This document shows positions 128 through 52,643 of a stretch of 52,702 nucleotides of DNA, one piece after another (the stretch's first letter is position 1; the number at the start of each line of letters is the position of its first letter). The notes beneath the pieces are model-generated. The model made no database searches. It had not been told where the DNA came from and saw only the letters and a program-made list of their open reading frames with translations. The position numbers and the translations under genes were made by a program. Where the stretch lies: positions 1 to 52,702 of the IMG/VR virus record IMGVR_UViG_3300032277_000005; one strand, given 5' to 3'. The stretch comes from a virus (taxonomy: Duplodnaviria; Caudoviricetes).

Positions 128-452
128 ACTCCTCGGCTACAGGGAAGGAAGCCCAGAAAACATTATCTGTAAGATAGACGCAATGCAAGATAGAGACTCA
201 ACTCTGTGGATAGGTGCATTCCGCTATTACTGTGGTCGCATGACAATAGCTGTAAGCGGATTTTGCGAAACAATGATCAGCAACATTGAAAACATTCCAG
301 ATGAAGCAGTGTCAATAATTAAGCGCGACCTAATTGAGGCTTTTGCTGATGACGACCGGGATCGCGAAGTTGGGAATGCCGTAAAACGACTTGGTATGGA
401 CTGCGATCGGCAGAAATGGCTGGAGGTTCTAGCCGCGATAAGCGGAGCCTAA
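90..452 (+). CDS. cassette-borne hypothetical protein
   Basis: ORF 57..452, likely ATG at 90; bounded by GTTAGGCTC (62) and GAGCCTAAC (445-453). Confidence 0.75.
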   Translation: MNDDELIAKISEKLLGYREGSPENIICKIDAMQDRDSTLWIGAFRYYCGRMTIAVSGFCETMISNIENIPDEAVSIIKRDLIEAFADDDRDREVGNAVKRLGMDCDRQKWLEVLAAISGA

Positions 453-499
453 CAAAGAGATAGACGGCGCACCGCGTCCGTTGCATCGAGGTGTTATGA
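447..499 (-). mobile_element. attC-like site (short family A)
   Basis: GCCTAAC...GTTATGA hairpin; shares AGAGAT..GCATCGAGG(T/C)GTTA with sites at 2317 and 44279. Confidence 0.8.
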
Positions 500-589
500 G
501 TAATACAAGCGAACATTAAATAACGGAGATAATATGAAAACACTAGAAGAAGTACAAGCGCAGTTACTAGGCGAGAAGGAGAGTAAGTA

Positions 590-1336
590 ATGCCTAAAAT
601 CGTGAACATGGAAGGGCTAAAGTTTGGAATGTTATCCGTTGTAAATAGGGCTGGGGTCAATAGTGATGGGAGGGTAACATGGCATTGCCAGTGTGATTGC
701 GGCAATGAAAAAGTGGTTAGTGGTAAAGCCATGAGAGGGGGGGAGACTTCAAGCTGTGGCTGTCTTCGCTGGGGCGATAAACGGAAAGCGGATGACATGA
801 AAATCACAAAAGCAGACATCGAAGCAGTAGTAACGTATAACCCTGAAACCGGCGCACTGATATGGAAGGAGCGCACAGCAGAGCAGTTTGAAGATAAAAA
901 TCTTCGGCGCGCATGGAATGATCAATGGGCGGGCGGCAAAGCAGGCCACTTCGAGGCAGACGAAGGGCATGTTAGGTTGAAAATAAAAAACAGGCAGATC
1001 TACGCTCGTAGAGCTATTTACATTCTAATGACCGGGAGAAACCCACCAGGGCCATTGATATTAAAAGATGGGGACAAGGGTAATTTAAAATGGGCAAATA
1101 TCGCTGTTAAAGAAACAAAGAAGTCTCTAGCAGAGAAAAGAGCGGCGCGACTCGCAGCAAGAAAGCCTAAGCCTGTATATCCAGGTGTAGTCTATGACTG
1201 GTATGACAAGAAATGGTTAGCTGTGATAAATCTAGCCAAGTTCGTCACTATCAGGGTTGGTGTATTCGCAACAGACAGCGAGGCTATCAAGGCCAGGGCT
1301 GATAAGCTGGAATCAATGGGGCTGGCTAGCTGTTGA
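590..1336 (+). CDS. HNH/AP2-type homing-endonuclease-like protein, HNH residues degenerate
   Basis: N-terminal FGMLSV..WHCQCDCG..SCGC motif; YNPETGALIW; HNH-like segment lacking His; C-terminal YPGV..KKWLAVI..GVF AP2-like region. Confidence 0.75.
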   Translation: MPKIVNMEGLKFGMLSVVNRAGVNSDGRVTWHCQCDCGNEKVVSGKAMRGGETSSCGCLRWGDKRKADDMKITKADIEAVVTYNPETGALIWKERTAEQFEDKNLRRAWNDQWAGGKAGHFEADEGHVRLKIKNRQIYARRAIYILMTGRNPPGPLILKDGDKGNLKWANIAVKETKKSLAEKRAARLAARKPKPVYPGVVYDWYDKKWLAVINLAKFVTIRVGVFATDSEAIKARADKLESMGLASC

Positions 1337-1351
1337 TGAGAAGGTGAGCAT

Positions 1352-1425
1352 TTATAACCCCTTGCTATGCGGCGCGACGTTAGGATCGTCCGGCGCGTAG
1401 CGCGAACATGAGCAAGTTGTTATGG
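1352..1425 (-). mobile_element. attC-like site
   Basis: Minus reading CCATAAC-AACTT-GCTCATGT...GCATAGC-AAGGG-GTTATAA; extra C in L''. Confidence 0.85.
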
Positions 1426-1811
1426 CGGATTTGCACAACATTAACGACCACATGGCAAGATATTGTGAGTGTGGATGCGTGAGATTTAACCTGCTGCGTA
1501 GTGGCGCTATTGAGTGCGACGACTGCCAGCTTAAACAACCAAAACTAAATTGGAGTGAAGACATGAACCCGGATTACAAACCAGAAGCAGAAGTAACTTT
1601 TAGCGATGACCAGATTGAGCAAGGCAAGGAAATTATTCGCGCGGCGATAACCAAAAATCAGCAGTGCTTTTGGCCTGACATTGTTGCAGAGGGTAACGGC
1701 TCTCTGCCTGCTTGGGTGCTACTTAAAGCGATCAGTGAAATGCAGAAAACAAAAGAGCTACGCTTGCGCGAAGACAGCTACGAACACGCAATGGAATATA
1801 TTTTGCGGTGA
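1422..1811 (+). CDS. cassette-borne hypothetical protein with CxCxC/CxxC zinc motif
   Basis: ORF; ends GTTATGGC (1419) and GCCATAAC (1812). Confidence 0.7.
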   Translation: MADLHNINDHMARYCECGCVRFNLLRSGAIECDDCQLKQPKLNWSEDMNPDYKPEAEVTFSDDQIEQGKEIIRAAITKNQQCFWPDIVAEGNGSLPAWVLLKAISEMQKTKELRLREDSYEHAMEYILR

Positions 1812-1812
1812 G

Positions 1813-1875
1813 CCATAACGCCATAGCTAAATGGGCCACGCAGTTTGTGGCTCCAATTTCAGTGACTTGTTATAC
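1813..1875 (-). mobile_element. attC-like site
   Basis: Minus reading GTATAAC-AAGTC-ACTGAAAT...ATTTAGC-TATGGC-GTTATGG; 40 bp identical to the site at 45606. Confidence 0.9.
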
Positions 1876-1889
1876 GAGGATAAATAAAG

Positions 1890-2075
1890 ATGGATAGAAG
1901 AAACGAAGACTACGAGCTAGCTGCAAAAATTGTTGACGAAGTGCTAAATAAGTCAAGCTTGCATAGACTACCTCACGAAGACGGGACATCTCCAACCTAC
2001 TGCCTTGGGCTAGAGGAAGGAGGAACTCTGCCATATATTGCGGAGCTGTTAGCTAAACACAGGCTTGGCGTATAA
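1890..2075 (+). CDS. cassette-borne hypothetical protein
   Basis: RBS GAGG; ends GTTATACG and CGTATAAC; stop overlaps TAAC. Confidence 0.7.
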   Translation: MDRRNEDYELAAKIVDEVLNKSSLHRLPHEDGTSPTYCLGLEEGGTLPYIAELLAKHRLGV

Positions 2076-2130
2076 CGCTTTAATTAAAAGGCTGCGCTTT
2101 TCGCAGTCCGTTTTGAACTACTTGTTAGCT
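2070..2130 (-). mobile_element. attC-like site
   Basis: Minus reading AGCTAAC-AAGTA-GTTCAAAA-CGGACTGCG..CGCAGCC-TTTTAAT-TAAAGC-GTTATAC; textbook attC spacing. Confidence 0.9.
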
Positions 2131-2142
2131 GTGGAGGCTACG

Positions 2143-2322
2143 ATGAAAAAACCAACGATTGATGATTTGAAAAAAGAGCTTGAAGCTGCAAGCAAGCGGA
2201 TAGAAATTCAAGAACGGTATTTAACTGAAGCGGACACTGTGCGCCGACTTATTGTTGCAGCGGGGCTGATTGATGAGGATAAGTTTCGACAAGCAGAGGA
2301 ACTTATAAGTAAGGACAGCTAA
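2143..2322 (+). CDS. cassette-borne small coiled-coil protein
   Basis: GGAGG RBS then ATG 2143 (MKKPTIDDLKKEL); ends GTTAGCTGT and ACAGCTAAC. Confidence 0.7.
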   Translation: MKKPTIDDLKKELEAASKRIEIQERYLTEADTVRRLIVAAGLIDEDKFRQAEELISKDS

Positions 2323-2369
2323 CAGAGAGATCGGAGGCGCGTAGCGACCTCTGCATCGAGGCGTTATAG
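2317..2369 (-). mobile_element. attC-like site (family A)
   Basis: AGCTAAC-AGAGAGATC...GCATCGAGGC-GTTATAG. Confidence 0.8.
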
Positions 2370-2546
2370 ACCCGCAACAATACGGAGTGAAAGGCAATAT
2401 GAGGATAGGACAAGGCATAGCTCGTGCTGCGCTTGTGGCCGGGGCTACAGTGCTTGAGATTTTTGACAAGCCAGCGGCGGGTTTGTGGGCCGTTATTGTT
2501 GTATGGGTTTTCCTAGCAGACTGGCACCTAAAAGAGATAGGCAAAG

Positions 2547-3029
2547 ATGACTAACCCAACACACATAACAGCAGACACCCTGCCCGGCATTATCGACAAC
2601 CTGAAAGCGGCTTGTGAGTCAGACAAAGATTACCAGTCGTCAATAACGCTGTTCGATAACTCACTGAAAGCCCGCCAGAGGGCGCTGGCTAACTGTTGGT
2701 ACAAAGATATAGCCGATAGCGAGGGTTATACATCAGGCTACGCAGAGGCGCTTTGCAAATATCATTACGGGTTCCGCATCAGGTGTGAGAATGACCCGGA
2801 TTTAGAGCGCATTATTCGCAGTATGCTTGACGGCAGGGCCTACGATGCAAAGCTTAAAATAATAGAGGTGTATCGTGAGTTCTTCCCAATACTGAGAAGC
2901 AAAGACGGAATGTCCACAGAGCAGCAAGGCCGATACCTATTCGAGATACAGCGCGGTATGGGTGCAGAGGGAATATTCCTATCAACACCTAAAGAGCGAT
3001 CACTATTGAGTTACCCGGAGGCAGGATAA
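2547..3029 (+). CDS. NinB/YbcN-like recombination protein
   Basis: SLKARQRALANCWYKDIA and STEQQGRYL..I motifs; position among nin-like genes. Confidence 0.55.
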   Translation: MTNPTHITADTLPGIIDNLKAACESDKDYQSSITLFDNSLKARQRALANCWYKDIADSEGYTSGYAEALCKYHYGFRIRCENDPDLERIIRSMLDGRAYDAKLKIIEVYREFFPILRSKDGMSTEQQGRYLFEIQRGMGAEGIFLSTPKERSLLSYPEAG

Positions 3030-3307
3030 TGGCTAAGAAAACAAAAATAAGGCAGTCAGCTAGAAACGAGGCTTGTTCGCTTCGCGTATCGCCACAGTGC
3101 CAAGATGGCGAGACAGTTGTTTTCTGCCATCTAAACAGCCCGAACAAAGGCATGGGCATCAAAAGCCCTGATATTTTCGGCGTGTACGGCTGCTACTGGT
3201 GTCATCAACAACTTGACTCAGGCAATGTAAATTACAGCGACAAACTAAGGGCGCTGATGGAAACACAATACAAGCTGGTCGAAAAAGGGCTTATTAGTTA
3301 TGGGTAA
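3029..3307 (+). CDS. DUF1364/YbcO-like HNH-fold protein
   Basis: IRQSARNEACSLR..C..ETVVFCHL..GMGIK..D..GCYWCH. Confidence 0.75.
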   Translation: MAKKTKIRQSARNEACSLRVSPQCQDGETVVFCHLNSPNKGMGIKSPDIFGVYGCYWCHQQLDSGNVNYSDKLRALMETQYKLVEKGLISYG

Positions 3308-3743
3308 GAATGTTGTTATCGGGTGTGACCCAGACTCAAAAGCTCATGGCGTGGCTGTTTACATGGATGGGAGGTTGATAGAGCTACGCAGCTTTGAGCT
3401 GCTAGAGCTACAGCAATACATCGAGCAGGACTGTTGTGGTTCTAACAGTATAGAGCTGCATATCGAAAATGTTTGCGGGGTAAGTGCGGCATTCAACGCA
3501 AGGGATAGGAAAACAAATCTCAATGTGAAGTTAAAAATTGCGCAGCATATTGGAATGTGCAAGCAAGCCCAGGTTGAAGTTGAAAGAATGGCTGAGGCTA
3601 ACGGCGTGAAAGTAGTTAAGCACAAAATATCTAAGATGTGGAAAAAAGACAAAGCGCAATTTGAGAAGGTAACAGGCTGGAGTGGGCATAGTAATGAAGA
3701 CACGCGCAGTGCAAGCTGGTTTGGCTATCTAGGCTGTAAATAA
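3300..3743 (+). CDS. RuvC-like Holliday junction resolvase
   Basis: IGCDP, HIEN and NEDTRSA acidic motifs of the RNase H fold. Confidence 0.55.
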   Translation: MGKNVVIGCDPDSKAHGVAVYMDGRLIELRSFELLELQQYIEQDCCGSNSIELHIENVCGVSAAFNARDRKTNLNVKLKIAQHIGMCKQAQVEVERMAEANGVKVVKHKISKMWKKDKAQFEKVTGWSGHSNEDTRSASWFGYLGCK

Positions 3744-3757
3744 ATATAAATTAGCGC

Positions 3758-3786
3758 TTGCATTAGCGCACATAATATAGTATACT
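3758..3786 (+). promoter_or_regulatory. sigma70-type promoter
   Basis: TTGCAT-17 bp-TATACT, followed by a CCAGC..GCTGG hairpin and GGAG RBS. Confidence 0.65.
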
Positions 3787-3834
3787 GGTTTCACCAGCTA
3801 AGGGAAGCTGGCTTTTATTAAACCGGAGAAAGCT

Positions 3835-4071
3835 ATGATTTATGCACAAGTTGGAACAATGCGGAAGGCAGGGTTAGCCGCGAAGTGGGGAAGGTTGAAA
3901 GGAGGTGCGCCAGCCATGTTTGTTAGGAACCCGGCTAGCGACCTAAAACACCAGCGGGAAAAGTGGTGGCATTTTGACGAGGCCATGCAAAAGTTAATGA
4001 CCGCCGAGGGAGTGGTCAAAGGGTTTGATTCTGCGACGTTGTTGGGGGGTATTTTTAGCATTAAAGCATGA
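3835..4071 (+). CDS. hypothetical protein
   Basis: ORF with RBS downstream of promoter. Confidence 0.6.
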   Translation: MIYAQVGTMRKAGLAAKWGRLKGGAPAMFVRNPASDLKHQREKWWHFDEAMQKLMTAEGVVKGFDSATLLGGIFSIKA

Positions 4072-4319
4072 ATGATTGCGATTATTGCAGAGACAGCGAC
4101 GGCGACCTATATAGTTGCCCGAACTGTCACGGCGAAGGATTTAATATAATGACACCAAAAACAAACGCACAACTACAAAAGACCCGCGACGATAAGCAGC
4201 GGGCAATGGGGCGCACTGGGCGCAAGGTCTGGGCGACACCAGAGGAACACGCGCATATTAATCAATGCCTGGCCAAGTACCGAAAAAAGCAGGAAAGGCT
4301 AGCAAGGAAAGCACAATGA
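4068..4319 (+). CDS. hypothetical protein with CxxC pairs
   Basis: ORF coupled by ATGA overlap. Confidence 0.55.
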   Translation: MNDCDYCRDSDGDLYSCPNCHGEGFNIMTPKTNAQLQKTRDDKQRAMGRTGRKVWATPEEHAHINQCLAKYRKKQERLARKAQ

Positions 4320-4675
4320 CTGACATAACCGGAACATGGGCCACCATCCCCGACTGCCCTAAGTACGAGTGCCTTTACGATCAGTCGAAGGGTACAAAGG
4401 TGCGGTTTAAAAAGACGGGGCCCGCTATACGCAACGGGATTAGCCGAAACGGCAGAAAGGCTGGCAAGTATTTAGAGGTTGGGCATGATGGGATGTTGGC
4501 TATAAAAAATCACCCAAACATGATGGCTTGTAGATGGACACCGCAAGAGTTGTGGGAGCACACATTTAAAAGCAAGCGCCTAATCACACCGGCAGAGCGC
4601 AAAGAAATCAGAATGCGCGAGGCGGCAGAGAGAAGGGCAGCAAATCAACTAAACAGGGATATGATAAGTGAGTGA
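4316..4675 (+). CDS. hypothetical protein, NUMOD4-like N-terminus
   Basis: Likely ATG at 4316 (MTDITGTWATIPDCPKYE). Confidence 0.5.
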   Translation: MTDITGTWATIPDCPKYECLYDQSKGTKVRFKKTGPAIRNGISRNGRKAGKYLEVGHDGMLAIKNHPNMMACRWTPQELWEHTFKSKRLITPAERKEIRMREAAERRAANQLNRDMISE

Positions 4676-5096
4676 AATAATGAAGATCAGGCTGCTGTCT
4701 GATTCAGCGACAGTACCAAGCAGGGCGACCAAGGGCAGCGCTGGTTATGACCTGAGTTGTGACAAGGGTTTTATCCTACAGCCCAATGAGCGGCGACTGA
4801 TCGGCACTGGGTTGGCTATAACGCTGCCTGTAGGGTCGTGGGGCGAAGTAAGGTCACGATCAGGGTTGGCGTCAAAGTACGGCATCGACGTTCAGGCAGG
4901 GACGATAGACCAGGATTATATCGGGGAGTTAATGGTGCTGCTGGTTAACAACGGCAATAGGCCGCTACGGTGTGAAACCGGCGACAGGATTGCACAGCTA
5001 GTCGTCCAAAAATGCATGAAGCCAAATATTATGGTAGTGCCGTCGCTGGATAAAACAGACCGTGGCGATGGTGGCTTTGGGCACACTGGGAAATAA
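4668..5096 (+). CDS. dut: trimeric dUTPase
   Basis: All five motifs: AGYDL, RSG, GTIDQDYIGE, GDRIAQL, RGDGGFGHTG. Confidence 0.95.
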   Translation: MSEIMKIRLLSDSATVPSRATKGSAGYDLSCDKGFILQPNERRLIGTGLAITLPVGSWGEVRSRSGLASKYGIDVQAGTIDQDYIGELMVLLVNNGNRPLRCETGDRIAQLVVQKCMKPNIMVVPSLDKTDRGDGGFGHTGK

Positions 5097-5151
5097 CGCT
5101 TTAGCTAAATCGCGCAGCGTAGCGGAGTCGAATTTCAGCGCGTTGTTAGGC
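5091..5151 (-). mobile_element. attC-like site abutting the dut stop codon
   Basis: Minus reading GCCTAAC-AACGC-GCTGAAAT...ATTTAGC-TAAAGC-GTTATTT. Confidence 0.9.
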
Positions 5152-5164
5152 GCATTACGGAGTA

Positions 5165-5395
5165 ATGAGAATGGGCATAAATAGATATAAAAAAGACCAC
5201 AATATAGATGGGTGGCATGTAGTGGACACTGAGCGCGGAGGGATATTGCACGCCGATGATATTGTTAAACGCTTAAACGAATATGAGGCTCTTTTGGCTG
5301 AGGCCGATGAGTACTTAAGCATCAATGAATTAACAAGCATTGGCAGTGGAAGCATTCTTCATCAGAAGTTTATAGCGATAACAGGCAAATACTAA
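5165..5395 (+). CDS. cassette-borne hypothetical protein
   Basis: ORF; ends GTTAGGCG (5145) and CGCCTAAC (5396-5403). Confidence 0.7.
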   Translation: MRMGINRYKKDHNIDGWHVVDTERGGILHADDIVKRLNEYEALLAEADEYLSINELTSIGSGSILHQKFIAITGKY

Positions 5396-5442
5396 CGCCT
5401 AACAGCACAGGCAAGCTAGCTGCAATCAACAGGGCAACCCCA

Positions 5443-5685
5443 ATGAACCCAACACTTAAATACAGATGCGGAGAGTGCGGCGACTCGCACAACGACCACG
5501 ACGAAGCACTCGAGTGCTGCCCTCCACAAATAAACGAAGTGTATCTGTGTGGGCACTGCCATGAAGACTACGGCCACGACGAAGACGCCGCCGAAAATTG
5601 CTGCGATGACGTTGACCCGGACGCCCTACCAATAGTAAGCCAACAAGAACTCGAAGCTGCAGGCCAAATGAGGCTCTGCGCATAA
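5443..5685 (+). CDS. Cys-rich acidic small protein
   Basis: Two CxxC...CC repeats. Confidence 0.7.
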   Translation: MNPTLKYRCGECGDSHNDHDEALECCPPQINEVYLCGHCHEDYGHDEDAAENCCDDVDPDALPIVSQQELEAAGQMRLCA

Positions 5686-5738
5686 CGCTTTAGGTAAAGC
5701 GCCGAGGTACGAGGTCGATTTTGACCGACTTGTTATAT
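5680..5738 (-). mobile_element. attC-like site
   Basis: Minus reading ATATAAC-AAGTC-GGTCAAAA...CTTTACC-TAAAGC-GTTATGC. Confidence 0.9.
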
Positions 5739-5751
5739 TTTGGAGGTTGGT

Positions 5752-5940
5752 ATGAAATTTGAAGATAGCACTGGATGGATTTGGTTTTTTGTTGACGAGT
5801 ATGGCGATGTAGGCACTGAATTTTTTTGGCTTGAAGAAAAGGAAGGTGAAATGCCGTACCAAATGGAAAAGGCTAGTTGGGATACTGAGAATAAAAGCTC
5901 TATACCAACAAGGGCAAGAATAGCGGAATTAAAGATATAA
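5752..5940 (+). CDS. cassette-borne hypothetical protein
   Basis: GGAGG RBS and ATG 5752; ends GTTATAT and ATATAAC. Confidence 0.7.
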   Translation: MKFEDSTGWIWFFVDEYGDVGTEFFWLEEKEGEMPYQMEKASWDTENKSSIPTRARIAELKI

Positions 5941-6022
5941 CCGCGGATTTAACCGGAGAGGAATGGAGCAATGAGTGAAACGAATAGCGGAATGACGAAT
6001 CCGGTTGAAACCTTTGTTAGGG
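5935..6022 (-). mobile_element. attC-like site (family B) encoding RBS, ATG and leader of the next gene
   Basis: ATATAAC...GGAG..ATGAGTGAAACG...GACGAATCCG...GTTAGGG. Confidence 0.85.
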
Positions 6023-6306
6023 TGCCGTGGCCTGAGGATAAATTGCCCTTGAAATTGAAAAACCCTAAGTGCCCGATTTGTGGCGGGGCATTATTTATTA
6101 CTGGGGTTAACGCTTGTGAGCAGGAGGATAACGGCGACTGGATAGCAAGCGAGATTGACATTGATTGCGAAAACGAGCCGGACATTGACAGTGACGAATG
6201 GGAAGACTGGCACAAGTGGCACTACAGCATGCCATATGTGGATTGGCTGCCGATAGACCGGCAGATTTTGAAAATGGTGCAGAGGACGTTTTACTTTGCA
6301 CCCTAA
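5971..6306 (+). CDS. cassette-borne zinc-ribbon protein starting inside attC
   Basis: CPICGG motif; ends GTTAGGGTGC and GCACCCTAAC. Confidence 0.7.
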   Translation: MSETNSGMTNPVETFVRVPWPEDKLPLKLKNPKCPICGGALFITGVNACEQEDNGDWIASEIDIDCENEPDIDSDEWEDWHKWHYSMPYVDWLPIDRQILKMVQRTFYFAP

Positions 6307-6360
6307 CCTTTACTTAACCGGTGCAGCTTTGCTGCATCCGCGTTTAAGTTGTTGTTATGT
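6301..6360 (-). mobile_element. attC-like site
   Basis: Minus reading ACATAAC-AACAA-CTTAAACGCGGATGCAGC-AAA-GCTGCACCGGTTAAG-TAAAG-GTTAGGG. Confidence 0.9.
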
Positions 6361-6383
6361 TTCGATTGTACAGATTCTAAGCT

Positions 6384-6445
6384 GTGAACTTATTTCACTT
6401 TATTTGTGTTATTTGCTTGACTATGTGAACTTAGTGCACTATAAT
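6384..6445 (+). promoter_or_regulatory. cassette-internal sigma70 promoter with two operator-like imperfect palindromes
   Basis: TTGACT(6417)-17 bp-TATAAT(6440); GTGAACTTATTTCAC (6384) and GTGAACTTAGTGCAC (6425). Confidence 0.8.
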
Positions 6446-6492
6446 TAGTTTCAAGAGTTAGGGAATGGCCCTAACAAAACGGAGCTAAGACA

Positions 6493-6681
6493 ATGATTAA
6501 ATCAGTAGACGAACTAAAAGCAGGCGACATTCTTAAAAACACTAATCATGGTTTTGAGATTGAAATTAAAGAGATTGGTAAAAAGAACACCCGCTACATC
6601 AACTTAGAGACTGGTGAGAAAGTAAAAAGCTTCACTACAAAATTCAACTTCATGCTACGCGAAGGAGTGTTTGTTAAGTGA
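6493..6681 (+). CDS. small basic hypothetical protein
   Basis: GGAG RBS; first gene of the promoter-bearing cassette. Confidence 0.7.
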   Translation: MIKSVDELKAGDILKNTNHGFEIEIKEIGKKNTRYINLETGEKVKSFTTKFNFMLREGVFVK

Positions 6682-7121
6682 ACGCAAAACAGACCAGATT
6701 AGCCCGACAAATGCTGGGCTTAAACCAAACCGAGTTTGCTGCACTGCTTGGCTGGACAAGCAAAAGAAACATAGTGAATTTAGAGCGCGGCGATAAAGAA
6801 GTAATGACACAAACAGCTTTAGCAATTGAATGCTTACTAAGAAGAAATAACAAATTTGGAGAGTTTGAGATGATTAATAAAATGCAGCCAGTTTTGGATT
6901 TTATATTAACTGAGATTAAGCGCGTTAATGGAAGCCGATCCGACAATACCACCATTTCTCAAGACGAAACAAATCAAGAGCTGGTTGATATTTTTCACGA
7001 TACTGCAAATAAGTTTACTGATATTGACTTTGAATTAACTGACAGCGAGGACGATCTAATAGAGCTTTTTGGCTACAAGGGCTATTGCTCTATTCGTGAA
7101 GCTGAAAGCGGTGCGTATTAG
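6678..7121 (+). CDS. XRE-family HTH regulator with C-terminal extension
   Basis: ARQMLGLNQTEFAALLG..IVNLERG. Confidence 0.8.
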   Translation: MNAKQTRLARQMLGLNQTEFAALLGWTSKRNIVNLERGDKEVMTQTALAIECLLRRNNKFGEFEMINKMQPVLDFILTEIKRVNGSRSDNTTISQDETNQELVDIFHDTANKFTDIDFELTDSEDDLIELFGYKGYCSIREAESGAY

Positions 7122-7123
7122 AA

Positions 7124-7185
7124 ACATAACCGATAGCTTAACGGCTGGCGCTTTTGCCAGTCCGATTTACAGCGCCTTGTTAGGC
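7124..7185 (-). mobile_element. attC-like site
   Basis: Minus reading GCCTAAC-AAGGC-GCTGTAAA...GTTAAGC-TATCG-GTTATGT. Confidence 0.85.
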
Positions 7186-7199
7186 GCGGGAGAGACTAG

Positions 7200-7409
7200 A
7201 TGCCAGTTACAGATTACAGCGATGCCGATTTAGTTAAGCGAGCGGTAAGAAACGCAAAACCAAACATAAACGGAACCGCACCTCGATGGGTTGCCGTAAT
7301 GGATACTTTCGGCCTTGGCAGAACATACGCATACGAATTATGCCGGTTGCATGACTTGAATCCAGACGACCCGATTGAGGGCGCACGTTGTATTTCCTGC
7401 AACCCTTAG
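7200..7409 (+). CDS. cassette-borne phage hypothetical protein
   Basis: ORF; ends GTTAGGCGC and GCGCCTAAC. Confidence 0.7.
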   Translation: MPVTDYSDADLVKRAVRNAKPNINGTAPRWVAVMDTFGLGRTYAYELCRLHDLNPDDPIEGARCISCNP

Positions 7410-7410
7410 C

Positions 7411-7488
7411 GCCTAACCCCATAAACACGCGGAAACGAAACAAGCGAAGCGGCGTGTAGTGAATCGCCGTGATTTTACATTGTTATAT
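7411..7488 (-). mobile_element. attC-like site (own cassette apparently truncated)
   Basis: GCCTAAC...CACGCGG..CCGTGATTTT..GTTATAT; no matching ATATAAC end downstream. Confidence 0.75.
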
Positions 7489-38300: not shown

Positions 38301-41300
38301 GCAGAACTATCGACCGCTGTAAGCCGCTTAGACAAGGCGATAAAGCAGCGAGTACAGATCGTTCAGACTACAAGCGATCTTCCCGTAGACGTGCCTACAG
38401 ACGTTCGTGGAATGTATTACGACGGTATTGCCTACGTTGTCGCTGATAACACGCCTGTATCTGACGCAAAGACCGTATTAACCCACGAGATAGTGGGCCA
38501 CATGGGCCTGGAGGAAATGCTAGGCGATTCATTCTCTGACGTTATCGGCAAGATCAAGCGCATGAAGCGAGTAGGTAACAAGCAGGTCGCGGAGATTGTC
38601 AAAACACTAAAGAGAAGCTATGTCGATGAAAACGGGAATTACGCACTAACACCTAATCAAGAAGCAAGGGAAATACTCGCCCATATTGCCGAGACCGACC
38701 ACAACCACTCATTAGTCAAACAGATTATTGCCAAGCTAAAACTATGGCTGGCACGAATGGGGCTGGCTAACAAGGATAGCGCGGAGGTTGGCTACCTGAT
38801 TGCACAGGCCGCAAGGTATGTTGAGGGCAAGGGTGATGCTGTATTAATAACTTCTACGGGAAATATAGAGCCTTATTTCGCTAAAGCCTATCATGGATCG
38901 CCGCACAAGCATGATGGAAGGCTAGACCCCTCTAAGATAGGCACAGGCGAAGGCGCACAGGCTTACGGTTATGGGTATTATGTGGCTGAGAGCGAAAAAG
39001 TCGCCGACAGCTATAGAGTGCAGCTTTCTGACGCGAAAGTAACCTTTGACGGGAAGGTTGCAAAAGACCCTTACCATGTAGAAGAAGGGCGAATGATTAA
39101 AGAATCATATCGGATTGAAATAGCTGAGATAGCACTGTCTTTGCGAGGCCGGTATAAAAATAACAAAGGTAATATGCAGAAAGCTATAATAGAGAATGGG
39201 GCCAAATATATTAATGACAGGGATTCCTTATCGCAATATAGAAAAGACACAAACTATGTTTTGAGCAACTTGGATAGATTCGACTATGAAAAAGGCCACC
39301 TATACGAATACGAAATAGACGACGACGCCATAAGCAAGATGCTTGATTGGGATGCGCCTTTGAGCGAGCAGAGCGACAGTATTCAGGGTGTCGCGGCAAG
39401 GGAGCTTGCTTTAGAAACCGGGATAACCCCAGCCCATGAAAATTTTGAGGCTATGGTGGGGCTGGCTAAGAATCAACTAAATGCTAAGACTGGCGAAGAT
39501 CTATATAAAAGCATGGTGAATAGGCTTGGCATGGATGCAGAGGTGTCACCGGACGAGATTGCTAGCCGTTATTTGTGGGCAGAGGGCGTCCCCGGCATTA
39601 AATACTACGACGGGCAATCAAGAGGCGAGGGGGAGGGAACCCGCAACTTTGTCATATTCCCTGGCGCAGAAGATATTGCAACGCCTATAAGCCGTAATGG
39701 AGTAATGTTTAGCAGAGAAACCCCAGGCACTCCAGAGTACGAAGCCGCTAAAGCTAAGGGCCTGGATATGTCCAAAAAAGCCAGGATGCAGCGAGCGCGG
39801 GATATGGGCTTTGATACCGATACCGTTTGGTATCATGGGACAGGTCGCCAATTCAGTTCATTCGACCCTAAAGCTGAGGGGGAGTTTTCTTCAATAGACA
39901 CTAATAATGTTGTTACTTTTACCACAGATGAAAATATAGCCAAAAGATACGCTAAGGAGTCAGCCGTTTCTGAAAAACAATGGGACGACGAACTAAACAG
40001 GTATATAAAAAATGGAAACCCGCGCATTGTTGAGGCATATTTGCCCTCAAACATAAAAAACATTGATGCTATCGGGAGACACCATGATTCTAAATGGATG
40101 ATTGGAGAGCAAGAAAAAGCGCGAAATCAAGGGTTTGATGGCGTTCGCTTTAATGGGTTAGCTGACGATGTTTACTACAATCCACTGGCAGGCGCGTCAG
40201 ATATAACACAGATATTCGACCCCTCTAATATCCGCTCAGTAAACGCCGCCTTCGACCCTATGGAAAAAGACAGTGCTGAACTGTTGTTTTCTCGGGGTGA
40301 TGGGAACTGGAAGGATGATTCCACAGGCTTCGCCATACCAGACGAGACTTGGAAGACAGTTGCTATCCGAAAGCTACAGGATAAATTTAAAGTCCTGAAA
40401 GACTTACAGGCTAACATTATTGAATCTGGAGGTGAGATTAGCGAGGAGGCAAACGCCTATATTGCGGAAGAGCTATTCCACGGCAAGGCGGAAAACGATA
40501 TTGCCATAATGAGGGATGAATTTGTCGCGCCAATGGCTGAGAAGATGGCGGAGTCTGGTATCACACAGGCACAGCTTGACAAATATCTTTATGCGCTACA
40601 CGCCGAAGAGCGGAACGATCATATAGCGTCAATAAACCCTGATATGCCCGACGGCGGGTCTGGGATGAAGACATCTAAAGCCAAAAAAATTATTGCCGAT
40701 ATAGAGCAGGGAGGCAAGGCGGCTGACTACAAAGACCTTGCCGGCATTGTCCATGCGATGCTAAGAGAGCGCCGCAGAGTTATTATTGACGGCGGCCTTG
40801 AGGATGACGGCCTAATTGATGCATGGGAAGATAAGTACAAAAACTACGTTCCGTTAAAAGGCTTTGCTGAGAACGAGCTAGATGACTCAAGACCAAAAAC
40901 AGGGCAAGGCTTTAACATTGGTGGCAAGGAATCCAAACGTGCACTAGGCCGAGGCTCAGAGGCCGCTAGCCCATCATCGTTCGCTATTATCGACCTGACA
41001 GAAACATTGGTTCGCAATCGCAAGAACGAAGTGGGTAACGCGCTGTTAAAGCTGATTGAAGACAACCCGCAAGAAAGCTATTGGGCATCTTATACCGAAG
41101 ACAACCCAGACACCGACCGGCGCATTGTGAAAGTGGATGGCAAGGATGTTGTCAAAGAGACAGTCATCCCAATGGCTTTGATGAAAGACCAATACTTCAC
41201 CACTAAGCGTAATGGAAAAACGCATTACATGAAGCTGGAAGACCCTCGCTTAATGGACGCGATGAAGAACCTTGGCGTAGAGCATGGCGGCACTGTCATT

Positions 41301-44278: not shown

Positions 44279-44327
44279 ATATAACACCTCGATGCAGCGG
44301 GCGGAGCCGCCGATCTCTTTGTTAAAT
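44279..44327 (+). mobile_element. attC-like site (family A)
   Basis: ATATAAC-ACCTC-GATGCAGC..GCCGATC-TCTTT-GTTAAAT. Confidence 0.8.
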
Positions 44328-44519
44328 TGCCGCAAACTCAGATACAACCGTGTTTTCGTAAGAATTCCCCTCAGTTGTCATCCAGTGAAAGTTGCCGTCC
44401 TCGTCTTTTTCCCAGTACGCGACAGCTTTGCGCCAATTAGTTTTTATCAAATAATGAGTGTGGCGCTTTGGTTTGGCGGTCCCGTTATTTACAATCCAGT
44501 TAATCGTTTGTTTTGCCAT
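44322..44519 (-). CDS. cassette-borne hypothetical protein
   Basis: MAKQTINW..; ends GTTAAATTG (44321) and CAATTTAAC (44532). Confidence 0.7.
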   Translation of the reverse strand: MAKQTINWIVNNGTAKPKRHTHYLIKTNWRKAVAYWEKDEDGNFHWMTTEGNSYENTVVSEFAAI

Positions 44520-44533
44520 CAATCGAACCCTCA

Positions 44534-44590
44534 ATTTAACAAAGCAGTCAAAACGACTGCGTAAACTTGCGTTTTACCTCGTGGTTATGC
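44534..44590 (+). mobile_element. attC-like site
   Basis: ATTTAAC-AAAGC-AGTCAAAA...TTTTACC-TCGTG-GTTATGC. Confidence 0.85.
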
Positions 44591-44785
44591 GCCTTTCTTT
44601 AAGGCTCTTTTACTGTAGTCTCTGTATATTTTGTGGCCGCATTTCCAGCACCTTGGTTCGCTCTTAGCAGTAGATTTGGCTGTGTCATAGCCACAGTTGC
44701 CACAAGGCTCGTACCATATATCAAAATCACGTAGCGCATAACAACGCGCTGAACTCGGATTCGTCTCTTTACTCGCTTCGCTCAT
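44585..44785 (-). CDS. cassette-borne zinc-ribbon protein starting inside attC
   Basis: MSEASKETNP.. with CGNC and CWKC; ends GTTATGCGC and GCGCATAAC. Confidence 0.7.
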   Translation of the reverse strand: MSEASKETNPSSARCYALRDFDIWYEPCGNCGYDTAKSTAKSEPRCWKCGHKIYRDYSKRALKKGA

Positions 44786-44817
44786 TTCGTTCCTCACCGG
44801 TTAGCTCAAGGTTAGGC
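44736..44817 (+). mobile_element. attC-like site (family B, leader-encoding)
   Basis: GCATAAC-AACGC-GCTGAACT-CGGA...CCGGTTAGC-TCAAG-GTTAGGC. Confidence 0.9.
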
Positions 44818-45063
44818 GCTAGGGCCGTAGGACTCAAATTCAACCCAGTCAGAAATCATCTGCCAAACTTGGTTATACATAGGCCAGTCTTTCTCGACCA
44901 CAACACAGTCAATGTCAGCGCAATCTCCAGAGTCAAGATCCTTATCAGGCTGCTTGATACTTGATAGCTCCAATAAAATATTATTGAGCTTCAGCTTTGA
45001 CTCAGTGGGCAGCAAATCAATATCTTTCCTCTTGAGTACTAAGTACCTATTTTCACGTTCCAT
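44812..45063 (-). CDS. cassette-borne phage hypothetical protein
   Basis: MERENRYLVLKRKD..CVVVEKDWPMY; ends GTTAGGCGC and GCGCCTAAC. Confidence 0.7.
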   Translation of the reverse strand: MERENRYLVLKRKDIDLLPTESKLKLNNILLELSSIKQPDKDLDSGDCADIDCVVVEKDWPMYNQVWQMISDWVEFESYGPSA

Positions 45064-45082
45064 AATTCTCACTCCGTAACGC

Positions 45083-45154
45083 GCCTAACAACAAATTGTT
45101 GCAGACTGTTCAATCGCTGCGCTCAATCACAGCGGCAAAATAAAAAGGTTAGCT
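45083..45154 (+). mobile_element. attC-like site
   Basis: GCCTAAC-AACAA-ATTGTTGC...GCAAAAT-AAAAAG-GTTAGCT. Confidence 0.85.
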
Positions 45155-45367
45155 GCCCTTAAACTTCTGCATTATTTCTTTGCATTTATCAATATCACCA
45201 CTTCGCCTAAGATCGTCTATATCCATCTCACCCATAGCTCGTCTATCTTCTGACCAAGGGTCGCCATCGTGTTCGTATTCATCATAATCAATTACCGCGT
45301 TTAGAAGCAGCTCAAAAGCAGCTAACAACACGTTCAAATCTGACTCGCTACACTTCGTTTCGCTCAC
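45149..45367 (-). CDS. cassette-borne protein starting inside attC
   Basis: AGGAG RBS and GTG start within attC; ends GTTAGCTGC and GCAGCTAAC. Confidence 0.7.
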   Translation of the reverse strand: MSETKCSESDLNVLLAAFELLLNAVIDYDEYEHDGDPWSEDRRAMGEMDIDDLRRSGDIDKCKEIMQKFKGS

Positions 45368-45388
45368 AATTTAACTCCTACGTTATAC
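45320..45388 (+). mobile_element. attC-like site (leader-encoding)
   Basis: AGCTAAC-AACAC-GTTCAAAT...ATTTAAC-TCCTAC-GTTATAC. Confidence 0.9.
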
Positions 45389-45392
45389 GGCT

Positions 45393-45584
45393 TTATCTGC
45401 TGCTGGTAACATCACAGCCGTGTTCTTGGAGCCACTTTTTTACAACGTAGTGAAATTGACGGTGGATTACGTCTATAGCCGCTTTGCTGACCTCGGGCCT
45501 CATCGGCGACTCTTCTAAATTCTTAAGTTTAAGCTGGTCGAGCAGCGCCTTAGCGTCCGCGTCTTGGATAATAATTGCTCGCAT
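45393..45584 (-). CDS. cassette-borne hypothetical protein
   Basis: AGGAG RBS; ends GTTATACGGC and GCCTTATAAC (9/10 complementary). Confidence 0.7.
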   Translation of the reverse strand: MRAIIIQDADAKALLDQLKLKNLEESPMRPEVSKAAIDVIHRQFHYVVKKWLQEHGCDVTSSR

Positions 45585-45605
45585 TGGTCTCTCCTACCTG
45601 TCGCC

Positions 45606-45670
45606 TTATAACAAGGCACTGAAATTGGAGCCACAAACTGCGTGGCCCATTTAGCTTGATTGCGTTATGC
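45606..45670 (+). mobile_element. attC-like site
   Basis: TTATAAC-AAGGC-ACTGAAAT...ATTTAGC..GTTATGC; 40 bp identical (inverted) to 1825..1864. Confidence 0.9.
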
Positions 45671-45838
45671 GCCCATAGCCCTTAAGCAAAGCTTGCATGT
45701 GACTTTAGTTTTTCTGGTTGTCGTTCCTTTTCTCACATACCCGCAGGCCGCTCCGTCATAACCTCTATCTCGATAATCGCGTACAGCGTAATCAGGTGCG
45801 TTTTTTAAAATTGTCGGGTCGTAGTAATGTACTTTCAT
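45665..45838 (-). CDS. cassette-borne 57-aa protein (not in ORF track)
   Basis: MKVHYYDPT..ACG..VTCKLCL; GAGG RBS; ends GTTATGCG and CGCATAAC. Confidence 0.65.
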   Translation of the reverse strand: MKVHYYDPTILKNAPDYAVRDYRDRGYDGAACGYVRKGTTTRKTKVTCKLCLRAMGA

Positions 45839-45863
45839 TTCACGCCTCTAATGTATTAAATTC

Positions 45864-45919
45864 GCATAACAAGTCGTCAATCGGACGGCTGCGCCAGCCG
45901 GTTACTTTTGGCGTTATGC
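45864..45919 (+). mobile_element. attC-like site
   Basis: GCATAAC-AAGTC-GTCAATCGGACGGCTG..CAGCCGGTTAC-TTTTGGC-GTTATGC. Confidence 0.85.
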
Positions 45920-46177
45920 GCCAAGTCTTCGTATTATGGCGGCAATTTTCTTTGTCATCGTTCCCCAAAAGCTGCCGTTAATCCATTCGTAGTTGGCACC
46001 TCTATCTTGGGTTTCAACAACTTTTGCACACTCTTCAATGGCCTCCGATCTAACGTCTGCCAATATCTTTAAATGATCGCTGTATCTAACCCATTCGCCA
46101 GCGGCGTCTACCTTTTCAAAAAGGCTCTGTCCCGTGTTGGGGCAATACCCAACGTCAAATTCATATCTATCAACCAC
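45914..46177 (-). CDS. cassette-borne phage protein (second gene of a two-gene cassette)
   Basis: GEWVRYSDH..AIEECAK..IAAIIRRL. Confidence 0.65.
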   Translation of the reverse strand: MVDRYEFDVGYCPNTGQSLFEKVDAAGEWVRYSDHLKILADVRSEAIEECAKVVETQDRGANYEWINGSFWGTMTKKIAAIIRRLGA

Positions 46178-46364
46178 AGCAACCTCCGTTCACTTTCTCA
46201 GCGTCTTTATATTCTTTGTCAATATCTTCTATTAACCCAACCTCAATTAACGGTATAGGCGTCCCATCTTCTAAGGTGGGTCGCCCGCACCATCCGCACC
46301 GATAGCGCATAACAACACGCTCAAGGCTCGCCTTCGGCTGGACTTCGTTCTTCGCTTCGCTCAT
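46170..46364 (-). CDS. cassette-borne protein starting inside attC
   Basis: MSEAKNEVQ..; CGWCG; cassette ends GTTATGCGC (45913) and GCGCATAAC (46305). Confidence 0.65.
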   Translation of the reverse strand: MSEAKNEVQPKASLERVVMRYRCGWCGRPTLEDGTPIPLIEVGLIEDIDKEYKDAEKVNGGCCG

Positions 46365-46391
46365 CTCTCGCCCCTTAGCTCTGGGTTATAT
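46307..46391 (+). mobile_element. attC-like site (family B, leader-encoding)
   Basis: GCATAAC-AACAC-GCTCAAGG...CCTTAGC-TCTGG-GTTATAT. Confidence 0.9.
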
Positions 46392-46625
46392 TTCCTTATC
46401 TAGTTCTGTTTTAGTCACGTATATACAATCACCTTCGCAAGAGTAATCGGCGTAAAATATCCAACCATCATCCTTGCCGTAATCGCGCTCTTCGTAATCC
46501 ACTGGATCTCTGGCGTAGTCTTTTGCTTTAGCCTTCGCCCATTCAACAGCCTTGTCAGCGTCAGTAAATGGGTGCGCGGTTGTATCTCTATGCCTGTCCT
46601 TCCAAATCGCTATGTAAATTTCCAT
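46386..46625 (-). CDS. cassette-borne hypothetical protein
   Basis: Ends GTTATATTT and AAATATAAC. Confidence 0.7.
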   Translation of the reverse strand: MEIYIAIWKDRHRDTTAHPFTDADKAVEWAKAKAKDYARDPVDYEERDYGKDDGWIFYADYSCEGDCIYVTKTELDKEI

Positions 46626-46647
46626 ACTTGCAAACCTCTTAGTTAAA

Positions 46648-46677
46648 ATATAACCAGGCGCTCAACTCGGATTCGTC
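46648..46677 (+). mobile_element. half attC site (R''-L'' arm only)
   Basis: ATATAAC-CAGGC-GCTCAACT-CGGATTCGTC matches the left arm of 44736; no L'/R' follows. Confidence 0.65.
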
Positions 46678-46833
46678 GCTATTCTCACCCCGCAAAACAC
46701 CTTTCTCGCACAATATGCGCTTTCTCATATAGCCCAGACTCAACAATCATTTCGGCAGATTCTTTGTTCATAGTGCCAGATAGACACCATCGCGGGTTAT
46801 CGTCCCCGGTGTACCAGTATTTGATTCTGTACA

Positions 46834-48934: not shown

Positions 48935-49113
48935 AAGTCTACATAATATGCGCAATTATCTTGGTTGTAGCATTCTTGCAAGGCTGCGGCTATGACGACG
49001 AGACCCTTGCTGCCGAGCATTATGTAAGCATGGTGTGTTCTGGGGCGTGGCCAGATTATCGAAGTGTACAGCCTGATTGCACAATACCGCCAGCACGACC
49101 AAATCAATACTAA
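48931..49113 (+). CDS. small lipoprotein
   Basis: Signal peptide with LQGC lipobox. Confidence 0.6.
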   Translation: MKVYIICAIILVVAFLQGCGYDDETLAAEHYVSMVCSGAWPDYRSVQPDCTIPPARPNQY

Positions 49114-49163
49114 CGCCATGGCTAGCCGGAGAGGAGCGAAATGAGCAAAGCGAATGAAGACGA
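49108..49163 (-). mobile_element. half attC site (L'-R' arm, family B)
   Basis: TACTAAC-GCCATG-GCTAGCCGGAGAGGAGCGAAATGAGC.. resembles the corresponding arm of 44736 and 5935. Confidence 0.6.
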
Positions 49164-49239
49164 TTGACCACCAACACCTAGTCGGATTATAATTAACGTA
49201 GGAAACCGACTTCCTACCTCTGGGCCTTCCCTCCCAGGC

Positions 49240-52069: not shown

Positions 52070-52133
52070 GAATAACGCCAGAGCTGTGCGGCGTGGAGCG
52101 CAGCGTAACGTCCGAACGAGCGACTTGTTAAGC
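52070..52133 (-). mobile_element. attC-like site
   Basis: Minus reading GCTTAAC-AAGTC-GCTCGTTC...GCACAGC-TCTGGC-GTTATTC. Confidence 0.85.
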
Positions 52134-52149
52134 AAATTATTTGGAGATA

Positions 52150-52578: not shown

Positions 52579-52643
52579 CCCTTAAAGCAGCGCGTTGATT
52601 TGAGCGCAGCGAAAAGCAATCCGCCTGACTTTTGTTGTTAGGC
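52573..52643 (-). mobile_element. attC-like site (same locus as 1..68)
   Basis: GCTTAAC...GTTAGGC. Confidence 0.85.

Follow-up and report, generated by a model that had tools for sequence, protein, structure and literature searches.

The early genes of one uncultivated phage are separated by hairpins that resemble attC, and several of these hairpins contain what looks like the start of the gene that follows. This locus raises the question of whether a recombination site can also be the place where translation of its own gene begins. We addressed the question in a window of 52,702 nucleotides, meaning the whole stretch of DNA analysed, which is the complete genome of the phage, with a 127-nt terminal repeat and no integrase. 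The window contains 21 full attC-type sites and two half sites, located between small early genes in two divergent arms. We consider it probable, at roughly 70%, that the arms are integrase-less attC arrays (CALINs) with their genes on the attC bottom strand, and that in one subfamily of sites a start codon in the hairpin loop gives the cassette ORF a fused leader.

No match to TIGR02249 (integron integrase) was found across the whole record, and a Pfam scan of 57 ORFs detected RecT and no other recombinase. There is no intI with attI beside the array, as there would be in a complete integron; two or more neighbouring attC sites with no integron integrase nearby constitute a CALIN as defined in PMC9892861, and the window contains exactly this arrangement. 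Rfam gave no match at the gathering threshold, and no tRNAs were found. Queries of a phage collection with an arm, structural genes and single sites returned no cultured relatives, close or distant; the matches to the window were RecT-level or chance only, and the RecT relatives (L001-L005) held no sites detectable by the model R1. Between 43000 and 49600 we found 11 promoter-like sites against 10.5 expected from shuffles, so the scan is uninformative on promoters within cassettes.

We scored sites with R1, a covariance model built in gene direction from phage sites only, with the structure set by hand. Its training set includes ten window sites, and a short type of site (447-499, 2317-2369 and 44279-44327) lies beyond its resolution. 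The plus-arm array (447..7488, plus strand) has 11 sites: the short-type sites at 447-499 and 2317-2369, attC sites at 1352-1425, 1813-1875, 2070-2130, 5091-5151, 5680-5738, 6301-6360, 7124-7185 and 7411-7488, and a leader-type site at 5935..6022 that is described below. Also on the plus strand are attC sites at 52070-52133 (28.7 bits) and 52573-52643 (14.8 bits), the latter extending into the terminal repeat. On the minus strand, ordinary attC sites lie at 44534..44590 (55 bits), 45606..45670 (62.9 bits; 98% identical over 50 nt to 1813-1875) and 45864..45919 (39.2 bits). The short-type attC-like site at 44279..44327 (minus) scored 10.9 bits on the minus strand and 9.0 on the plus strand, so that R1 does not discriminate its polarity; its fold places the bulge on the 3' arm. 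The site at 45083..45154 (minus, 12.2 bits) has no loop start; its loop contains TTGAGCGCAGCGA, which is closed by the TAG of the 3' box, and a Shine-Dalgarno tract and ATG follow the box. A half site consisting of the 3' arm and box only (46650..46695, minus; 80% identical to 44738-44781) stands at the head of the minus-arm array. In both arms the sites are always co-oriented with transcription, and at 15 of the 21 the TAA of the box is the stop codon of the upstream gene.

Four sites carry a start codon inside the hairpin at the positions proposed in the first-pass annotation, each preceded at 5-9 nt by the purine-rich, RBS-like tract that it had described. The plus-strand site 5935..6022 (19.4 bits; 3' box GTTAGGG) has GAGG at 5958-5961, 9 nt before ATG 5971, and opens a 111-aa ORF of family A3 (5971..6306, plus), for which the 5' box of the following site supplies the TAA stop. 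The other three are on the minus strand. In 44736..44817 (39.7 bits, outside training), GAGGA at 44795-44791 precedes ATG 44785 by 5 nt; the TAA of the 5' box, GCCTAAC, stops the upstream gene, the 3' box is GTTATGC at 44742-44736, and the loop ATG is the only in-frame ATG, GTG or TTG before the conserved domain of the resulting 66-aa zinc-ribbon ORF (44585..44785, minus). In 45320..45388 (52.9 bits, a training sequence; 3' box GTTAGCT), AGGAG at 45379-45375 lies 7 nt before position 45367, where the start is GTG, not ATG; the 72-aa ORF (45149..45367, minus) ends at the next 5' box TAA. In 46307..46391 (32.1 bits, outside training), AAGGGG at 46376-46371 lies 6 nt before ATG 46364, the 3' box is GTTATGC, and the cassette behind it (45914..46364, minus) holds two overlapping genes, 46170-46364 (64 aa) and 45914-46177 (87 aa). 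In three of the four cases the stop codon of the ORF is the TAA of the 5' box that follows; the remaining ORF overlaps the next gene. A truncated leader-type half site at 49108..49165 (plus) has a 5' box, GAGGAG, ATG 49141 and eight codons that read MSKANEDD, as had been noted, before a stop; it adjoins a promoter-like site at 49164-49193 and is 90% identical to an L156 site. With both a Shine-Dalgarno tract and a start codon located in the loop, the site does supply expression signals, as had been suggested, and it also seems to start translation of its gene.

If the leaders were unrelated to the genes behind them, their frames should agree in one case of three. At all four window sites the leader frame is the frame of the downstream gene (p=0.012 against 1/3), and among leader-type sites confirmed by R1, a count that leaves out the unconfirmed look-alikes L166, L176 near 9415 and L178, 14 of 15 are in frame and open into ORFs of 59-124 aa (p=2e-6). 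The exception is the L171 site at 6668, which stops 7 codons after the box. Among phage arrays identified by means other than the leader motif, a Shine-Dalgarno-supported start lies within 10 of 42 sites, compared to 2 of 40 bacterial integron sites (Fisher p=0.026).

At least 11 further viral contigs carry the leader module, and the same type of leader is found ahead of genes that are unrelated from phage to phage. In L149 and L156, 128-nt sites have a common 24-aa leader with unrelated proteins behind it. Among homologues of the window genes the leader is variable, an outcome that the first-pass annotation had set as a check: P0044, a homologue of the 45149-45367 product with 66% identity, keeps an MSEAKSDESELSALL leader, and four other homologues have no leader. 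The gene at 46364 and its L174 homologue (42% identical) both have a leader and cross the box in different frames, both of which are open. In alignment A4 of the zinc-ribbon family, the conserved core runs from LGDFDIWY onwards, and only close relatives have the leader. The recurring 'MSE' follows from the conserved loop sequence ATGAGCGAAGCGA... and should not be counted as having arisen independently four times. The loop is conserved at the nucleotide level, third codon positions included, and the cause could be a constraint on the DNA or RNA, or recent shared ancestry, instead of coding.

The strongest competing explanation is that the loop ORFs are not real N-termini, with the proteins starting at or just after the 3' box and the upstream stretch acting at most as a leader whose translation eases ribosome passage across the hairpin, a role ascribed to short ORFs of attC and attI1. 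Several observations fit this explanation. A box ATG (GTTATG) is in frame at 46364, at L156 3295, L149 4193 and L156 738, and at L187 sites, so a shorter product starting at the box is possible; the 45367 ORF has in-frame GTG and TTG codons at the box; the 129-aa ORF at 1352-1425 starts at the box ATG; and distant homologues begin at about the box, with P0038 (MRYKLGDFD) fitting the box ATG. However, beyond its loop ATG the 44785 ORF offers no further in-frame start, the Shine-Dalgarno tract precedes the loop start and is absent before the box ATG, frame agreement at 14 of 15 leader sites is unexpected for a separate short ORF, and sites without a loop start are closed by a TAG in the box. Taken together, these data make initiation at the box an unlikely account of the leader-type sites.

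For initiation in the loop, RNA folding predicts an accessible start. In MSEAK-type sites the Shine-Dalgarno tract and AUG are predicted to be mostly unpaired in the apical loop, with P(unpaired) of about 0.4-0.9; the suggestion that the mRNA hairpin gates translation gains no backing from these folds. The upstream TAA in the 5' box lies 15-30 nt before the start signals, so coupling to the upstream stop is possible, and nothing here requires it.

The sites that hold these signals are true members of the attC family. TAAC and TTGTTA are invariant in all 17 aligned sites, and inverted terminal boxes (RYYYAAC...GTTRRRY, with conserved AAC and GTT) are present at 21 sites. We computed constrained DNA folds for 20 window sites, and in most of them a symmetric internal loop of 4-6 nt separates the R stem from the inner L''/L' stem; multiloops appeared at six of the 20. 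One-sided bulges of 1-2 nt are present at 13 of the 20 folded sites and absent from the fold of 5935-6022; 23 are on the 3' arm and a single one is on the 5' arm. In attC such extrahelical bases lie on one arm, near L'', and the published bottom strand (5' R' RYYYAAC, extrahelical bases near L''; PMC5027507) corresponds to the gene strand of the window sites. R1, although trained on phage sites only, gives the class 1 aadA1 attC of R100 a score of 48.3 bits (E about 1e-8 to 1e-9) and recovers 54 of 55 sites across three bacterial chromosomal integrons, two of Colwellia and one of Pseudoalteromonas. It also finds four sites, on the gene strand, in the cultured Pseudoalteromonas phage H101. Other approaches were less productive. 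RNAalifold gave no structure for the 17-site MAFFT alignment because the loops misalign; a hairpin heuristic (TAAC...GTTA plus energy) was too noisy, and loci that it marked as 'dense', L016 among them, proved to consist of ordinary genes. A 16-base pattern returned mostly chance matches in genome contigs, with four weak R1 matches in the 100 of 120 loci covered by that scan (all but L107-L126).

Two cassettes that recur in viral contigs or metagenomes other than this one indicate which piece of DNA moves. Homology between the window and L197 extends from about 5941-5948 to 6307, that is, from just after ATATAA|C to CCCTAA|C, and is nil outside; in L197 the 5' box upstream is unrecognisable, and the attC body is conserved with the gene. 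The segment from 45913 to about 46386-46390 is 90-100% identical in runs X2-X5 (four runs from four studies), with unlike flanks and contigs that diverge beyond both ends. It ends at the 5' box of the 45864..45919 site (45913/45914), and contigs of other runs bridge the leader, box and gene of the 46307-46391 site. For both shared cassettes, the predicted RYYYAA|C points coincide with the breaks or lie within a few bases of them. In L197 and in the four runs alike, the attC body remains attached to its downstream gene, which upholds the earlier proposal that the leader travels with its own gene. One case departs from this pattern: run X4 holds the 45320-45388 attC (45321-45385) with both flanks unlike the window and a different sequence on the gene side, where it is joined to another ORF, so attC and gene are not always inherited as one piece. 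A tblastn comparison of 45 window ORFs with 37 viral loci gave five weak matches and was uninformative on cassette boundaries.

The repeats might instead be phage-specific intergenic elements that look like attC and are never used by an integrase, serving as RNA hairpins (in processing, coupling or termination) or as RecT homology patches for gene shuffling. The absence of an integrase, the RecT gene of the phage, and the constant co-orientation of sites with transcription in both arms would all be expected of such elements. So would the 45320-45388 attC found alone in another context, and conserved modules that pass the box and reach the start codon (5142-5174 vs 45060-45092, with contigs breaking at 45061). 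We nevertheless regard this explanation as improbable, and more so than initiation at the box. A model trained only on phage sites finds the aadA1 attC and whole chromosomal arrays in a strand-specific manner, both cassette boundaries fall at, or a few bases from, AA|C crossover points, and IntI1 recombined attC sites of virulent phages (five of the six phage sites tested; PMC9892861), in one of which R1 finds four sites.

The R1 matches also establish the orientation of the genes relative to their sites. The R100 match is on the strand opposite aadA1, and 54 of 55 matches in the Colwellia and Pseudoalteromonas integrons are on the intI strand. Of 45 bacterial intervals, counted after removal of short partial matches, 31 have their cassette ORFs opposite the R1 match and one has them on its strand; 13 are undecided. 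In 11 phage arrays, by comparison, ORFs share the strand of the match in 29 of 43 intervals and are opposite in none, with 14 undecided; 20 of the 21 window sites score on the gene strand. In a canonical cassette the attC follows the gene, whose coding strand is the attC top strand. Here, phage matches are on the gene strand and bacterial matches are opposite, so the phage genes are on the attC bottom strand and each attC is 5' of its own gene. The phage arrays are opposite in polarity to bacterial integrons. The first-pass annotation had claimed inverted polarity, which the strand-specific matches, the ORF counts and the 3'-arm bulges bear out. It had also cited as independent support that the core is crossed in three frames; the crossing is real (the box G occupies codon positions 1, 2, 3 and 1 at 5971, 44785, 45367 and 46364), but by itself it does not speak to polarity. 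Canonical polarity, with the leader of an upstream cassette fused to whatever lands behind it in the manner of attI1 ORF-11, could account for the same leader type before unrelated genes in different phages, for the common 24-aa leader of the 128-nt L149/L156 sites, and for the X4 junction of the 45320-45388 site with another ORF, but it is very improbable given the strand-specific matches, the bulges on the 3' arm, and an attC body kept with the downstream, not the upstream, gene in L197 and four runs.

The reading we favor is that the early genes are organised as two divergent CALINs in which the hairpin would be the gene's own 5' leader. Because the genes are on the attC bottom strand, a cassette in gene direction is C + attC + gene + RYYYAA. 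In one subfamily the variable loop contains the Shine-Dalgarno tract and ATG or GTG, with its conserved sequence (ATGAGCGAAGCGA...), and the frame runs through the L''/R'' arm, which is the uncut arm, into the cassette ORF, probably adding a dispensable N-terminal extension of 14-19 aa (MSEAK...). Crossover would take place at the opposite box, where the previous gene has its TAA|C, and start signals, leader, ORF and stop codon would then move together. Ribosomes may start at the loop codon, host IntI may move the cassettes, and the arrays may be transcribed early as polycistronic units.

The usual description of an integron cassette is a gene followed by its attC, with expression reliant on outside signals. 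The window sites share boxes, spacers, extrahelical base, size range and TAA stop with canonical cassettes such as aadA1 of R100 and those of Colwellia and Pseudoalteromonas; they differ in that the gene strand is reversed relative to the site and in that intI and attI are absent. Phage CALINs, reported in virulent phages in 2023, likewise have attC between small genes of integrase-less phages; the minimum there is two predicted sites, whereas the window has 21 full sites in two divergent arms, and the available text makes no mention of bottom-strand genes or start signals inside attC (PMC9892861). A second precedent comes from attI1, where ORF-11, ORF-17 and ORF-18 have a canonical Shine-Dalgarno tract and ATG on the recombination site. 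As in the window, the site and a short ORF overlap, cassettes without start signals of their own are served by that ORF, and in-frame fusions occur; but those ORFs are in attI, once per integron, span the crossover, and act mostly by termination-reinitiation (review PMC8876359). The window signals are in attC, once per cassette, and the window ORF passes through the uncut box and continues into the gene as a fusion. The window leader would therefore work in a similar way to ORF-11 without being a member of that type of enhancer. According to the same review, attC hairpins block ribosomes, and a short ORF inside attC relieves the block (Jacquier et al. 2009). Both cases involve an attC RNA structure that ribosomes would encounter and invoke an ORF within the attC; in the Jacquier type the hairpin is top-strand and downstream of its own gene, with a short ORF separate from the next gene, whereas in the window a bottom-strand hairpin displays start signals in its loop. 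We rate the window case as a variant of phage CALINs and attI1 ORF-11, set apart by inverted polarity and loop starts. An incomplete literature search found no reports of inverted phage arrays or of start signals in attC loops.

Much of the early regions consists of these reverse-built cassettes, which are also found in many uncultivated phage contigs and in the cultured phage H101. More speculatively, marine phages may keep a pool of sense-bottom-strand cassettes in which attC, besides being the recombination site, would act as a portable module of 5' UTR and start signals. If true, any ORF landing behind an attC would become an expressed early gene, swappable between phages via host integrases or RecT. 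The orientation places the recombinogenic strand on the non-template strand, and, should replication initiate around 49.3 kb in the divergent region, that strand would be the lagging-strand template in both arms. Placement of the recombinogenic strand on the lagging-strand template is reported to favour attC folding and excision (PMC13108822), and would, if true of this phage, maximise cassette turnover. Use of the loop start would turn each cassette, by means of its recombination site, into a self-contained unit of translation, and such units would explain how ORFan genes are exchanged between phages with immediate expression. The phage arrays offer a concrete system for studying the origin of the association between attC and genes and the choice of attC strand.

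The 52,702-nt window, which is the whole virus record and carries a direct terminal repeat of 127 nt, has its genes on the + strand over 1 to 43040, on the - strand from 49119 to 43218, and on the + strand again from 49486. Among the 57 small or early ORFs scanned, Pfam named few (dUTPase, YbcO, HTH, and RecT) and found no integrase; the integron-integrase model TIGR02249 had zero matches across the record, and no DNA-level similarity to cultured phages was found for the window. One ORF of 2565 aa fills 35343-43040 (+). The best sigma-70-like match of its region (TTGACC, 18 nt, TATAAT; 11/12) lies at 49164-49193 (+), faces the + arm, and begins directly after a truncated leader-type site. At 6383-6446 (+), a TTGACT...TATAAT motif recognised by eye overlaps two direct repeats of 23 nt (beginning TGTGAACTTA). 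A 62-aa gene and an HTH protein (6678-7121) lie downstream, and for this reason the segment is likely an operator and promoter region.

Nearly all the small genes in 1-7500 (+), 52070-52643 (+), and 44279-46700 (-) are separated by imperfect palindromes of 49 to 88 nt, each starting ...TAAC and ending TTGTTA...; these two motifs are the sole invariant parts of a 17-site alignment. Curation gave 21 full and two half sites. DNA-parameter folds of 20 sites, with AAC/GTT pairing forced, mostly showed an outer stem, a symmetric internal loop of 4 to 6 nt, and an inner stem followed by a variable loop; six sites gave multiloops. One-sided bulges of 1 to 2 nt fell on the 3' arm 23 times versus once on the 5' arm (13 sites) and were absent at 5935-6022. 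Two sites of opposite arms, 1825-1874 (+) and 45607-45656 (-), share 98% identity across 50 nt, suggesting recent arm-to-arm exchange or copying. Elsewhere, viral contigs L134 and L149, from two different samples, hold one attC array in opposite orientations, with identical scores site by site under R1, our covariance model of the phage sites.

The first-pass annotation had proposed that these sites have inverted polarity relative to their genes, and our in silico comparisons support this. The spacer of the aadA1 attC of plasmid R100 is 5 nt long on the coding strand, where the 5' L arm has an extra C; on the complement the spacer is 6 nt long, and the 3' arm has an extra G. Nivina et al. 2016 define the bottom strand in the same terms as the complement (PMC5027507). 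Phage sites read in gene direction resemble this complement. R1, trained on ten window sites in gene direction, placed 20 of the 21 curated sites on their gene's strand, with three extra matches at chance level elsewhere in the window, and its 48.3-bit match to the aadA1 attC lay on the strand opposite that of aadA1. The exception, 2317-2369 (+), scored only on the opposite strand (9.9 bits) and belongs to a short type of 49 to 53 nt with a GC-rich inner stem (also 447-499 (+) and 44279-44327 (-)), for which R1 cannot assign the strand; in folds, the bulge of this type is on the 3' arm. In bacterial test loci (two of Colwellia piezophila, with integron integrases above the curated cut-off, and one of Pseudoalteromonas sp. 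MMG010, with an intI pseudogene), 54 of 55 R1 matches were on the intI strand. Bacterial cassette ORFs, counted only in intervals between full-length matches, lay on the strand other than that of the R1 match in 31 of 45 intervals and on the same strand in one (13 undecided), whereas the ORFs of 11 phage arrays shared the strand of the match in 29 of 43 intervals and lay opposite it in none (14 undecided). Given the strand-specific matches, the likeness in bulge and spacer, and these counts, the window sites are attC family members, and the phage genes are on the attC bottom strand. Pseudoalteromonas phage H101 has four R1 matches at 75919-77987, with all annotated genes of the region on the same strand. 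According to Qi et al. (PMC9892861), attC sites of phages including H101 are IntI1 substrates; the inverted build therefore also occurs in a virulent phage that is in culture and whose attC sites have been tested by experiment.

The box that is cut, RYYYAA|C, is thus the 5' box when sites are read in gene direction, and each attC goes with the gene behind it. The TAA of this box is the stop codon of 15 of the 21 upstream genes. Viral contig L197 holds a 90% identical copy of the 111-aa gene 5971-6306; the alignment is unbroken from just past ATATAA|C to CCCTAA|C at 6307, with partial identity from 5941 and full identity from 5948, and the sequences are unrelated on either side. Similarly, 45913-~46390, containing the attC 46307-46391 (-) and its two genes, is 90 to 100% identical in Logan contigs from four runs of four studies, which span leader, box, and gene and depart from the window sequence below 45913 and beyond 46375-46390. 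Predicted crossovers match the observed ends to within 1 base at 45913 and 6307, and lie a few bases from those near 46375-46390 and 5941-5948. Two observations count against strict linkage: L197 lacks a recognisable 5' box, and in one of the four runs (X4) the 45320-45388 site has other sequence on both flanks.

The four starts originally reported at 5971, 44785, 45367 (a GTG), and 46364 are real, each lying in a loop with a Shine-Dalgarno-like tract 5 to 9 nt upstream, and the box is crossed in three frames as described (1, 2, 3, and 1). The leader ORFs occupy their cassettes; that at 44785 encodes a CxxC...CxxC protein with no alternative start possible. Just before the 5971 leader, a four-codon mini-ORF (ATG GAG CAA TGA, 5962-5973 (+)), kept in L197, ends on its ATG. 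The sites have a loop sequence in common. A motif search (GAGGAR, a gap of 2 to 4 nt, ATGAGCRAAGCGA) returned 32 viral DNA stretches, about half of them ordinary genes with an MSEA or MSKA N-terminus; the remainder have the same attC subtype upstream of unrelated ORFs. Further loop-start subtypes are GC-rich sites with a GTG start (L198 and L199) and the 128-nt sites L149 4193-4320 and L156 738-865, which share a 24-aa leader, M[KQ]ED...AGLNER.VM, with the box ATG in frame and unrelated proteins behind. Among 15 R1-confirmed leader-type sites, 14 open into ORFs of 59 to 124 aa (p = 2e-6 for the gene-frame match versus a one-in-three chance); the exception, in L171, stops after 22 codons. In-site starts with Shine-Dalgarno support occurred in 10 of 42 phage sites, from arrays retrieved independently of the leader motif, versus 2 of 40 in bacterial arrays. 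The proposal that the site supplies expression signals thus gains in silico support from a tract and start in the loop and an ORF through the box, with translation from these starts being predicted.

Behind the 3' box of two unrelated cassettes, 5142-5174 (+) and 45060-45092 (-) share a module of box, GGAG, and ATG (82% identity over 33 nt), and so ready-made start regions exist also downstream of the box. Contigs from two of the four runs (X2 and X3) carry the 45060-45092 module and diverge immediately past the start codon (loose ends at 45061). At 1352-1425 (+), the 3' box ATG (1422), which no Shine-Dalgarno tract precedes, is the first start of a 129-aa ORF; a ATGAGCAAG mini-ORF in the loop, out of frame, overlaps that start, an arrangement that looks like coupling rather than fusion.

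RNA folds predicted for the MSEAK-type sites place a mostly unpaired Shine-Dalgarno tract and AUG in the apical loop, which argues that the hairpin would display the start instead of sequestering it and leaves the suggested gating of translation by an mRNA hairpin unsupported. In the GC-rich type of L198 and L199, the GTG is hidden in the predicted fold. The leader start may be coupled to the upstream TAA. Phage CALINs are already published (PMC9892861), and a review describes start signals and short ORFs for attI1 and a short ORF inside attC that relieves a hairpin block (PMC8876359). The literature passages searched mention neither phage arrays whose genes lie on the bottom strand nor fused start modules in attC loops.

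The first-pass annotation had also proposed checking whether homologues lack or vary the leader, and both cases were found across the families of the 5971, 44785, and 45367 ORFs. In the 5971 family, all three aligned relatives at 91 to 93% identity keep the leader, those at 57 to 70% have different leaders still reading through the box-encoded VRV, and those at 35 to 51% start near the expected box position; in L198 and L199, the upstream attC is of another subtype. About 4 of 17 members of the 44785 family have an MSE, MSK, or MSG leader followed by C-Y-x-L, most others start a few residues ahead of the conserved LGDFDIWY, and a few have longer, unrelated N-terminal extensions. The MSEAKSDESELSALL leader is kept in one of five members of the 45367 family. 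Leaders are present both on the 46364 gene and on its 42% identical homologue in L174, and they cross the box in different frames. Because homologues change or omit it, the leader is a variable, dispensable extension that is tied to the attC and lies outside the conserved protein.
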